Positions 49,938-49,968 of a stretch of DNA of 64,000 nucleotides are shown in pieces (the first letter of the stretch is position 1; each line of letters opens with the position of its first letter). Origin of the DNA: an uncultured Verrucomicrobiae bacterium (GTDB lineage Bacteria; Verrucomicrobiota; Verrucomicrobiia; Opitutales; Opitutaceae); the NCBI GenBank assembly GCA_963800005.1, contig CAWCZH010000006.1, positions 1,690,226 to 1,754,225 on the forward strand, in the 5' to 3' direction. The notes beneath the pieces are model-generated. The model searched no databases. It saw only the letters and a program-made list of their open reading frames with translations, and was not told the origin of the DNA. Made by a program: the position numbers and the translations under genes.

Positions 49938-49968
49938 CCATCTAGCTATATAGTATATAGCTAGATGG
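49938..49968. repeat. Perfect 31-bp palindrome CCATCTAGCTATATA-G-TATATAGCTAGATGG spanning the lpdA stop codon
   Basis: The two arms are exact reverse complements, read directly from the sequence. The right arm contains the lpdA terminal Ile codon and the TAG stop. Confidence 0.6.

Follow-up and report, generated by a model that had tools for sequence, protein, structure and literature searches.

A perfect palindrome at the lpdA stop codon of an Opitutaceae bacterium and the hyper-abundance of TATATA around it

HIP1, the highly iterated palindrome GCGATCGC of cyanobacteria, is described as 15- to 300-fold over-represented, both within and between genes, and as linked to orphan methyltransferases and possibly to biased repair (Elhai 2015, PMC4390886; Xu, Lawrence & Durand 2018, PMC5861425). 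According to Elhai, its one-base variants are end-biased, deviating mainly at the outer positions (PMC4390886). Here we analyse 64,000 nucleotides (64 kb) from an uncultured bacterium of the Opitutaceae (Verrucomicrobiota; contig CAWCZH010000006.1, positions 1,690,226 to 1,754,225), a stretch that we call the window. The hexamer TATATA is hyper-abundant in it, and a perfect 31-bp palindrome with two copies of this hexamer at its centre overlaps the stop codon of lpdA, the gene for dihydrolipoyl dehydrogenase. By analogy, HIP1 is the closest known phenomenon for the TATATA unit, and DNA uptake sequences are the second analogue.

Uptake sequences (the DNA uptake sequence, DUS, of Neisseria and the uptake signal sequence, USS, of Pasteurellaceae) are 9-12 nt long and non-palindromic, and are explained by molecular drive rather than by a function of each site; inverted pairs of DUS form terminator-like hairpins at gene ends. 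The palindromes known as repetitive extragenic palindromes (REPs) and bacterial interspersed mosaic elements (BIMEs) stabilise mRNA at the 3' end, with malE-malF of E. coli as the paradigm. REPs are imperfect and GC-rich, are headed by GTAG or GGAG, and come in tens to hundreds of copies. Quasipalindrome or template-switch mutations, as in the Ripley model, create perfect inverted repeats in one step.

The original prediction held that a perfect 31-bp palindrome, too long to be expected by chance, includes the last codon and the TAG stop of lpdA. This observation is confirmed. A repeat finder returned the arms 49938-49952 and 49954-49968, which are 100% complementary (15 of 15 positions) across a spacer of 1 nt. 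In a scan of the 64 kb, this is the sole perfect inverted repeat with arms of at least 15 nt and a short spacer, and the longer inverted pairs listed reach a complementarity of just 71-83%. The right arm contains the stop TAG (49961-49963), the last codon ATC (49964-49966) and two bases of the codon GCC. The elements of the locus are as follows.

49938-49968, no strand: perfect palindrome with two arms of 15 nt and a central G/C, CCATCTAGCTATATA-G-TATATAGCTAGATGG
49945-49952, minus strand: left copy of TATATAGC, reading GCTATATA on the plus strand
49954-49961, plus strand: right copy of TATATAGC, its final base being the first base of the stop triplet on the plus strand
49961-51352, minus strand: lpdA, dihydrolipoyl dehydrogenase of 463 amino acids, last gene of sucA-sucB-lpdA (Pfam, homologues in PDB)

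The centre of the palindrome is TATATA-G-TATATA with GC, the commonest flank, on either side; it can also be read as GCTATATA-G-TATATAGC, in which the most frequent form of the unit stands twice, head to head. Outside this, 7 nt repeat exactly, in inverted orientation, how the lpdA reading frame ends (CC-ATC-TA...). Two neighbouring TATATA units necessarily pair with each other. The further nine pairs per side do not follow from this, and by our own arithmetic the chance of nine extra pairs is about 0.26^9, or ~5e-6 per site. If GC is counted into the TATATAGC unit, 7 pairs are left, with a chance of ~1e-4 per site.

On the lpdA strand, the palindrome is predicted to form an RNA hairpin with a 14-bp stem and a 3-nt loop (folding free energy -20.5 kcal/mol, z-score -5.7), which has the UAG stop in its 5' arm. 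As DNA it would form a hairpin of -12.9 kcal/mol (z-score -6.1). None of 200 shuffles folded equally well. The RNA hairpin is also predicted in the 3' untranslated region of lpdA as a whole, being retained when the entire 346-nt spacer is folded.

49939-49967, minus strand: predicted RNA stem-loop on the lpdA transcript, 13-14 bp with the 3-nt loop UAC in its native context
49919-49938, minus strand: small GC-rich hairpin GAGGCCGCGGGCGCCGCCUC directly 3' of the palindrome, about -10 kcal/mol

With its stem-loop at a gene end on the transcribed strand, the palindrome resembles an intrinsic terminator. The U-tract (at least 4-8 U) just 3' of the stem is lacking, the tail being AGGCCGCGGG; the small GC hairpin is followed by GUCUAUAUAUC, which is another TATATA (49910-49915), and again by no U-run. 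The remark that no T-run follows on the minus strand is therefore borne out, and it holds on both strands. The palindrome is missing from the list produced by a terminator scan that does include true terminators nearby. Other gene ends in this genome have textbook terminators, with a GC stem and T5-T8 (CCCACCCGGAAACGGGTGGG-CTTTTTT, GGCAGGCCACGCGGCCTGCC-CCTTTTT and CGGCGTCCTCGCGGCGCCG-CCCGGTTTTT), so the palindrome is atypical as a terminator, and we reject its identity as a classical one.

An LpdA scan of species-representative genomes returned 44 loci of Opitutaceae (629 kb in total) with an LpdA identity of 74-84%. When these are aligned at the stop codon, the palindrome is absent from all 44. 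The 100 nt after lpdA are not homologous among them, but a strong hairpin is usually present, in three cases a classical terminator (L029, L035, L036) and in several a GTAG-headed, REP-like palindrome. The C-terminus of LpdA (...AVSKSAIHAI*) equals those of the relatives (...HAL*, ...HAI*) in length and is nearly identical to them in sequence; lpdA is thus intact at its end, and the palindrome has left the protein unaltered. The upstream order MTHFR, sucA, sucB, lpdA is common to the closest relative (L077), and the gene after lpdA differs. As a side observation, GTAG-headed, GC-rich REP-like palindromes (for example, GTAGGGGCGCGGCTCGTCCGCGCCC) occur at 8543-8567, 8587-8611 and 9320-9344 of locus L007 and in the lpdA 3' flanks of L001, L015, L022, L030, L032 and L038. 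None of the GTAG-headed REPs of the relatives, such as those of L007, is present in the window. The set of intergenic palindromes in this genome seems to differ from theirs.

Taken alone, the palindrome is probably an RNA 3' hairpin of recent mutational origin. The fuller model that we tentatively prefer, while giving it less than even confidence, is that a strand-switch inverted duplication now acts as an RNA 3' stem-loop, serving as an exonuclease barrier and, where the operon ends, as a pause or partial stop. During replication, the self-complementary TATATA would allow the growing strand to pair anew with the opposite one (a template switch), and the re-annealed strand would copy back the last 8 nt of lpdA, giving a mismatch-free palindrome in one step. 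Since the other arm is coding sequence conserved in the relatives, the downstream arm must be the derived copy, and we infer from a constrained coding arm faced by its exact, mismatch-free reverse complement that such a one-step copy is the simplest origin. The coding part of the sucAB-lpdA transcript would then end in a 14-bp stem of about -20 kcal/mol. Because its 5' arm includes the stop codon, the stem would close only after the terminating ribosome has left. The stem-loop stands at the site where relatives carry a post-lpdA hairpin or terminator, and it would most likely block 3' exonucleases and uncouple lpdA from a DUF4383 gene 321 nt downstream by a pause or partial stop; classical hairpin-plus-U-run termination is not part of this proposed role. 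That the hairpin is on the transcribed strand, right where the last gene of a conserved operon ends, supports the model.

Other points weigh against it. The upper 6-7 pairs of the stem are all A-U, and termination activity is doubtful, because there is no U-run and ordinary terminators with a GC stem and a T-run are found elsewhere. An RNA role needs no perfect symmetry of the DNA. In a database of 5.8 billion proteins, one LpdA is identical (P0001) and the next best are 85-86% identical; no close relative is therefore public, and none above 86% LpdA identity is found in the public data searched.

LpdA has the domains Pyr_redox_2 and Pyr_redox_dim (Pfam) and matches dihydrolipoyl dehydrogenases in PDB at 1e-147. 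The genes and the terminator around it are the following.

51499-52737, minus strand: sucB, upstream of lpdA in the operon
52774-55524, minus strand: sucA, upstream of sucB in the operon
49160-49639, minus strand: next gene downstream, a DUF4383 membrane protein of 159 amino acids, starting 321 nt past the lpdA stop
49105-49130, minus strand: classical intrinsic terminator after the DUF4383 gene, with the GC stem CGGCGTCCTCGCGGCGCCG followed by CCCGGTTTTTTT

The stop codon TGA of sucB is likewise embedded in a hairpin (GCGUCUGACGUAUCCGUUUUCUGGAUACGCGC, 51475-51506, minus strand, about -10.5 kcal/mol), so both junctions around lpdA begin with a stem-loop that overlaps a stop codon.

Many copies of the 31-mer at unrelated places would mark it as a simple dispersed repeat, and no such copies were found in the sequence searched (the window, viral contigs and JGI metagenomes). 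Apart from the palindrome itself, the 64-kb window contains no match to the arms, whether sought as 15-mers with up to 3 mismatches or as 12-mers with up to 2; the 23-nt core is absent from the viral contigs and has one match in the JGI metagenomes, on an unrelated contig of 38% GC. For the sequence searched, we therefore reject a dispersed repeat. The same searches bear on the idea of a mobile or dispersed element, either REP/BIME-like or a miniature TA-targeting one of the IS630/mariner type, which we consider very unlikely. The palindrome can be parsed as a 17-bp insert, GCTATATAGTATATAGC, flanked by a TA duplication in a CTAG target (C-TA-[17 bp]-TA-G), it is placed just past a stop codon in the fashion of a REP, and in several relatives a GTAG-headed, REP-like palindrome follows lpdA. 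However, neither the arms nor the core have a second copy in the window or the viral contigs, and the lone metagenome match is unrelated. A size of 17 bp to 31 bp, with no internal segment, is far under that of any known miniature inverted-repeat transposable element (MITE), and taking the insert away would leave CCATCTAGATGG, a hypothetical empty site that is a 12-bp palindrome in need of explanation in its turn. Nor does it look like a REP or BIME: the head is CTAG rather than GTAG or GGAG, and the many dispersed copies of an imperfect palindrome are not seen in the 64 kb or in the viral and metagenome collections.

A dif/Xer site has two arms of ~11 bp around a centre of 6-8 bp and lies at a change of sign in the GC skew. 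Here the centre is 1 nt, and the cumulative GC skew climbs monotonically from about 8 kb on, through the palindrome, with no change of sign; a dif site is therefore rejected. An Rfam scan of the whole window found no family at the gathering score, which also sets aside a known structured RNA family. The 31-mer thus fails at least one defining feature of each of the intrinsic terminators, REP/BIME, MITEs, dif sites and Rfam families. The interpretation given in the original prediction, which listed a protein-binding site, a cruciform or recombination site, and an RNA hairpin as possible functions, is partly supported: an RNA hairpin is strongly predicted, whereas a recombination site or mobile element is unsupported, given the single copy, the lack of dif-like architecture and the steady GC skew.

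The palindrome was also said to be built from a unit that recurs in the window. This is correct, with 41 occurrences of TATATAGC against 0.42 expected, but it under-weights the context, which is a lineage-specific excess of TATATA that reshapes codon choice. TATATA occurs 144 times in the 64 kb (22.5 per 10 kb, about one per 450 bp; for example, at 139, 3127, 17149, 33389, 44366, 48321, 51013 and 60329), against 2.1-2.6 expected from the composition of the window, whose GC content is 63%. It is thus about 60-fold over-represented and by a wide margin the top palindromic hexamer. The 44 related loci together hold 6 copies in their 629 kb, which makes the window about 218-fold denser, and the closest relative has 1 copy in 21 kb. 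A general expansion of dinucleotide repeats was rejected as a cause, the enrichment being restricted to TA-type hexamers. Our literature search found no paper that links TATATA with Verrucomicrobia or reports such over-representation in bacteria; as far as that search reached, the hyper-abundance is unusual and undescribed. Among other short words of the window, CTAG is 4.6-fold under-represented (21 sites versus 96 expected, 2 of the 21 lying in the palindrome), and GCTAGC, TCTAGA, TTTAAA and AGTACT are absent.

The signal is concentrated in the hexamer. Its flanks carry little information (at most 0.5 bit, weakly W-G-TATATA-G-C), and palindromic extension around single sites is no longer than chance predicts, so we rejected an extended symmetric consensus. 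The long arms at the lpdA stop therefore reflect a singular event rather than something that the motif does in general. One-base variants of TATATA number 214 at the outer positions, 127 at positions 2 and 5, and 26 at the centre. The copies form 126 clusters: intergenic DNA, which amounts to 12.4 kb, holds 71 (1 per 175 bp), and coding sequence holds 55 (1 per about 940 bp). At least one TATATA is carried by 32 of the 36 mapped intergenic spacers of at least 35 bp, convergent spacers included, and position relative to starts and stops is close to uniform. Spacing shows clustering at short range only (6-14 bp), with a coefficient of variation of the gaps of about 1, which leads us to reject even spacing as well as helical phasing beyond one turn. 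A promoter -10 element was rejected too: a sigma-70 scan gave no excess of promoter-like sites, the motif is present in convergent spacers, and it keeps no fixed distance to starts. As a part of terminators, TATATA shows a weak excess only, 36-55 nt after stops (12 versus 6.6 +/- 2.3), and this role was likewise set aside.

Some further observations concern where the motif lies. Runs of (TA)5 and (TA)6 at 23363-23372 and 45405-45416 are potentially slippage-prone and lie near the predicted 5' ends of a mandelate racemase-like gene and a glucose/sorbosone dehydrogenase-like gene. Two stretches, 8309-9401 and 57548-58892, run for 1.1-1.3 kb each without a confident gene call, and both contain TATATA sites; an open reading frame lies at 57679-58953 (minus strand).

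The palindrome could also have a neutral origin in whatever process fills this genome with TATATA. According to this explanation, which we regard as somewhat unlikely, it is a by-product without a role at lpdA, a mutational scar formed as an inverted duplication or by two TATATAGC coming together by chance. It exists once, no relative conserves it, it has no terminator-like tail, its perfection suggests recency rather than long-term selection, and TATATA fills 32 of 36 mapped spacers, convergent ones too, without strong positional preference. On the other hand, a transcript hairpin of 14 bp and -20 kcal/mol is unlikely to leave 3' decay or elongation unaffected, the palindrome occupies the position of the hairpins of the relatives, and its 14-mer recurs just upstream of lpdA.

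This 14-mer, TATATAGTATATAG, is found exactly twice in the window, at 49947-49960 (plus strand) in the palindrome and at 51368-51381 (minus strand). The two copies are mutually inverted and lie at the stop codon and upstream of the ATG, and so bracket lpdA. Degenerate copies of the 14-mer occur at six other loci. In seven intergenic regions, moreover, two TATATA lie 10-11 bp apart, that is, at one helical turn.

51368-51381, minus strand: TATATAGTATATAG, the sole other copy of the 14-mer of the palindrome centre, 15 nt upstream of the lpdA ATG
3127-3142, 17149-17165, 21950-21966, 27842-27858, 44366-44381, 48321-48336 and 56419-56434, intergenic: TATATA pairs at one-turn spacing

Neighbouring TATATA copies often share their flanks, as with AGTATATAG, present twice at 44364-44382, CTATATAG, present twice at 3126-3143, and TATATAG, present twice at both ends of lpdA, and this indicates that local duplication around the motif occurs. 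The one-turn pairs look like local tandem duplications or two-site binding modules. The bracket around lpdA could be a coincidence (roughly 2%), a pair of regulatory sites or the footprint of a duplication. The lpdA stop is the one place where a perfect inverted repeat extends into the flanks. In addition, units spaced by 7 form AT-rich quasi-palindromes at 11569-11585 (TATATATACTATATGTA) and 11750-11763 (TATATAGTATATGG), in the convergent spacer after a peptidase S51 gene, where they yield a weaker hairpin 14 nt past its stop.

The bracket and the one-turn pairs in seven intergenic regions are the main support for a function at the level of DNA, in which the palindrome would be a two-fold symmetric, high-affinity site or a cruciform, used by a factor that recognises TATATA or by a dimeric regulator of lpdA or the downstream gene. 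We judge this rather unlikely. It would account for the perfect symmetry, the AT-rich centre would favour extrusion (-12.9 kcal/mol, z-score -6.1), and the palindrome is made of an over-represented unit. Yet no other TATATA site has symmetric flanks beyond chance, the outer arms (CCATCTAG) occur nowhere else in the window, and the 64 kb hold no candidate gene for a regulator, methyltransferase or nuclease. The bracket itself was noticed post hoc and has a chance of roughly 2% given the density of similar sites.

Coding sequence gives evidence of a directional force on TATATA. Three of the four TATATA sites in lpdA and sucA encode residues that are conserved in relatives, and do so with the rare codons GTA TAT Ann or CTA TAT Aaa where the relatives have GTC TAC Ann or CTC TAC Aaa; at the fourth site the amino acids have changed, from V-[LVF]-T to V-Y-S. 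Throughout the window, Tyr-Ile is written TAT ATA in 28 of 44 cases and TAC ATC in 1 of 44. For Tyr, the codon is TAT in 106 of 113 cases when an A follows, and in about 50% before C, G or T. No such effect before A was seen in the window for His, Asn or Asp. Since only Tyr shows it, the effect is at the level of the DNA motif and not translational, and an explanation by codons and tRNAs was rejected. TATATA is realised at 78 of the 131 positions that the protein permits (about 60%), in almost every gene. CTAC/GTAG is the most depleted tetranucleotide with respect to the relatives (0.45-fold), as expected if xTC TAC was converted.

These data also bear on an artefact of assembly, base calling or editing, which is highly improbable in our estimate. 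Suspicion might come from the contig name of the closest relative, 'np1212', which hints at long-read assemblies of metagenome-assembled genomes. A search with the C-terminal fragment of LpdA, moreover, yielded no 100% fragment, and the match in a second assembly covers only the neighbouring 1.6 kb. This match, in the Logan assembly of run ERR11523676 (L076), is 100% identical to window positions 48071-49639, six TATATA sites included; it stops at precisely the A of the DUF4383 start codon, which leaves a gap of 300 bp to the palindrome. Every gene of the window is in frame, the residues over TATA agree with the family consensus in 78% of cases versus 81% for other residues, and the database holds a 100% identical protein, which confirms the palindrome's coding arm. 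TATATA arises from different ancestral strings (GTCTACA, CTCTACA), so no single systematic error explains the motif.

The TATATA motif is more interesting than the palindrome that led to it. We suggest, as a possibility about which we are rather doubtful, that highly iterated palindromes have evolved independently a second time, with TATATA as the new type, and that a dedicated molecular system puts it in place and keeps it there. Candidates would be a motif-specific methyltransferase combined with biased short-patch repair, or a bias in uptake or recombination, converting ~60% of the synonymous opportunities. The genes of the 64-kb window include no candidate regulator, methyltransferase, nuclease or competence gene. 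If the hypothesis is true, the palindrome at lpdA and the tandem duplications of TATATA would be direct footprints of strand switching or gene conversion. It would also be a very young case, with the gain of the motif open to dissection, because relatives at 85% protein identity lack TATATA or nearly so. In practice, this genome will mislead composition-based binning, predictors of promoters and terminators, and codon models that were trained on relatives.

Compared with known systems, the palindrome alone is minor, one more hairpin where an operon ends. Its importance is that, of the local products of a genome-wide anomaly, it is the most conspicuous. It is like an intrinsic terminator in being a stable stem-loop that ends the last gene of an operon, and unlike one in its AU-rich upper stem and lack of a U-run, the terminators of this genome having a GC stem and T5-T8. 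Like a REP or BIME, it comes right after the stop codon at an operon end, without a U-run, and would be expected to block 3'-5' exonucleases; unlike them, it is perfect, AT-centred, overlaps a reading frame and occurs once in the sequence searched. It shares with the products of the Ripley model its perfect arms, one of them pre-existing and constrained, and its self-complementary centre; the event here is a putative one, read from its product.

TATATA is like the uptake sequences in its density of about one per kb or more, its presence in coding and non-coding DNA and its enrichment between genes, and the palindrome at lpdA resembles inverted DUS in that a head-to-head pair makes a hairpin just after a stop codon. 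It differs from DUS and USS in having a symmetric hexamer core with little-informative flanks rather than an asymmetric motif of 9-12 nt, and a 6-mer of A and T discriminates poorly against AT-rich foreign DNA. No competence genes are seen in the window, and this group is not known to be competent.

The likeness to HIP1 is closer. TATATA exceeds 15-fold over-representation (144 versus 2.1-2.6) and is present inside as well as between genes (55 coding and 71 intergenic clusters). Like HIP1, it is a short, lineage-specific palindromic oligomer, about one per gene or denser, genic and intergenic; its coding copies are made via codon choice, and its variants deviate mainly at the outer positions, as Elhai describes for HIP1. 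This likeness concerns one genome so far, read from 64 kb. Unlike HIP1, a GC-rich octamer of cyanobacteria, TATATA is a hexamer of A and T only in a verrucomicrobial genome of 63% GC. Its saturation is very high, at about 60% of synonymous opportunities and 94% TAT before A, and, unlike both HIP1 and the uptake sequences, it is near-absent in relatives at 85% protein identity. What hyper-abundant short palindromes such as HIP1 do and how they arose has been a matter of debate for 30 years, with comparison so far confined to cyanobacteria. TATATA offers a natural experiment in an unrelated organism, where a motif has gone from near zero to about one per 450 bp and has overridden a strong codon bias towards G and C at third positions. 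It allows one to ask which genes were gained (for a methyltransferase, a nuclease, repair or uptake), whether the drive is mutational or selective, and how transcription, hairpin formation and genome stability respond to thousands of self-complementary sites that melt easily.

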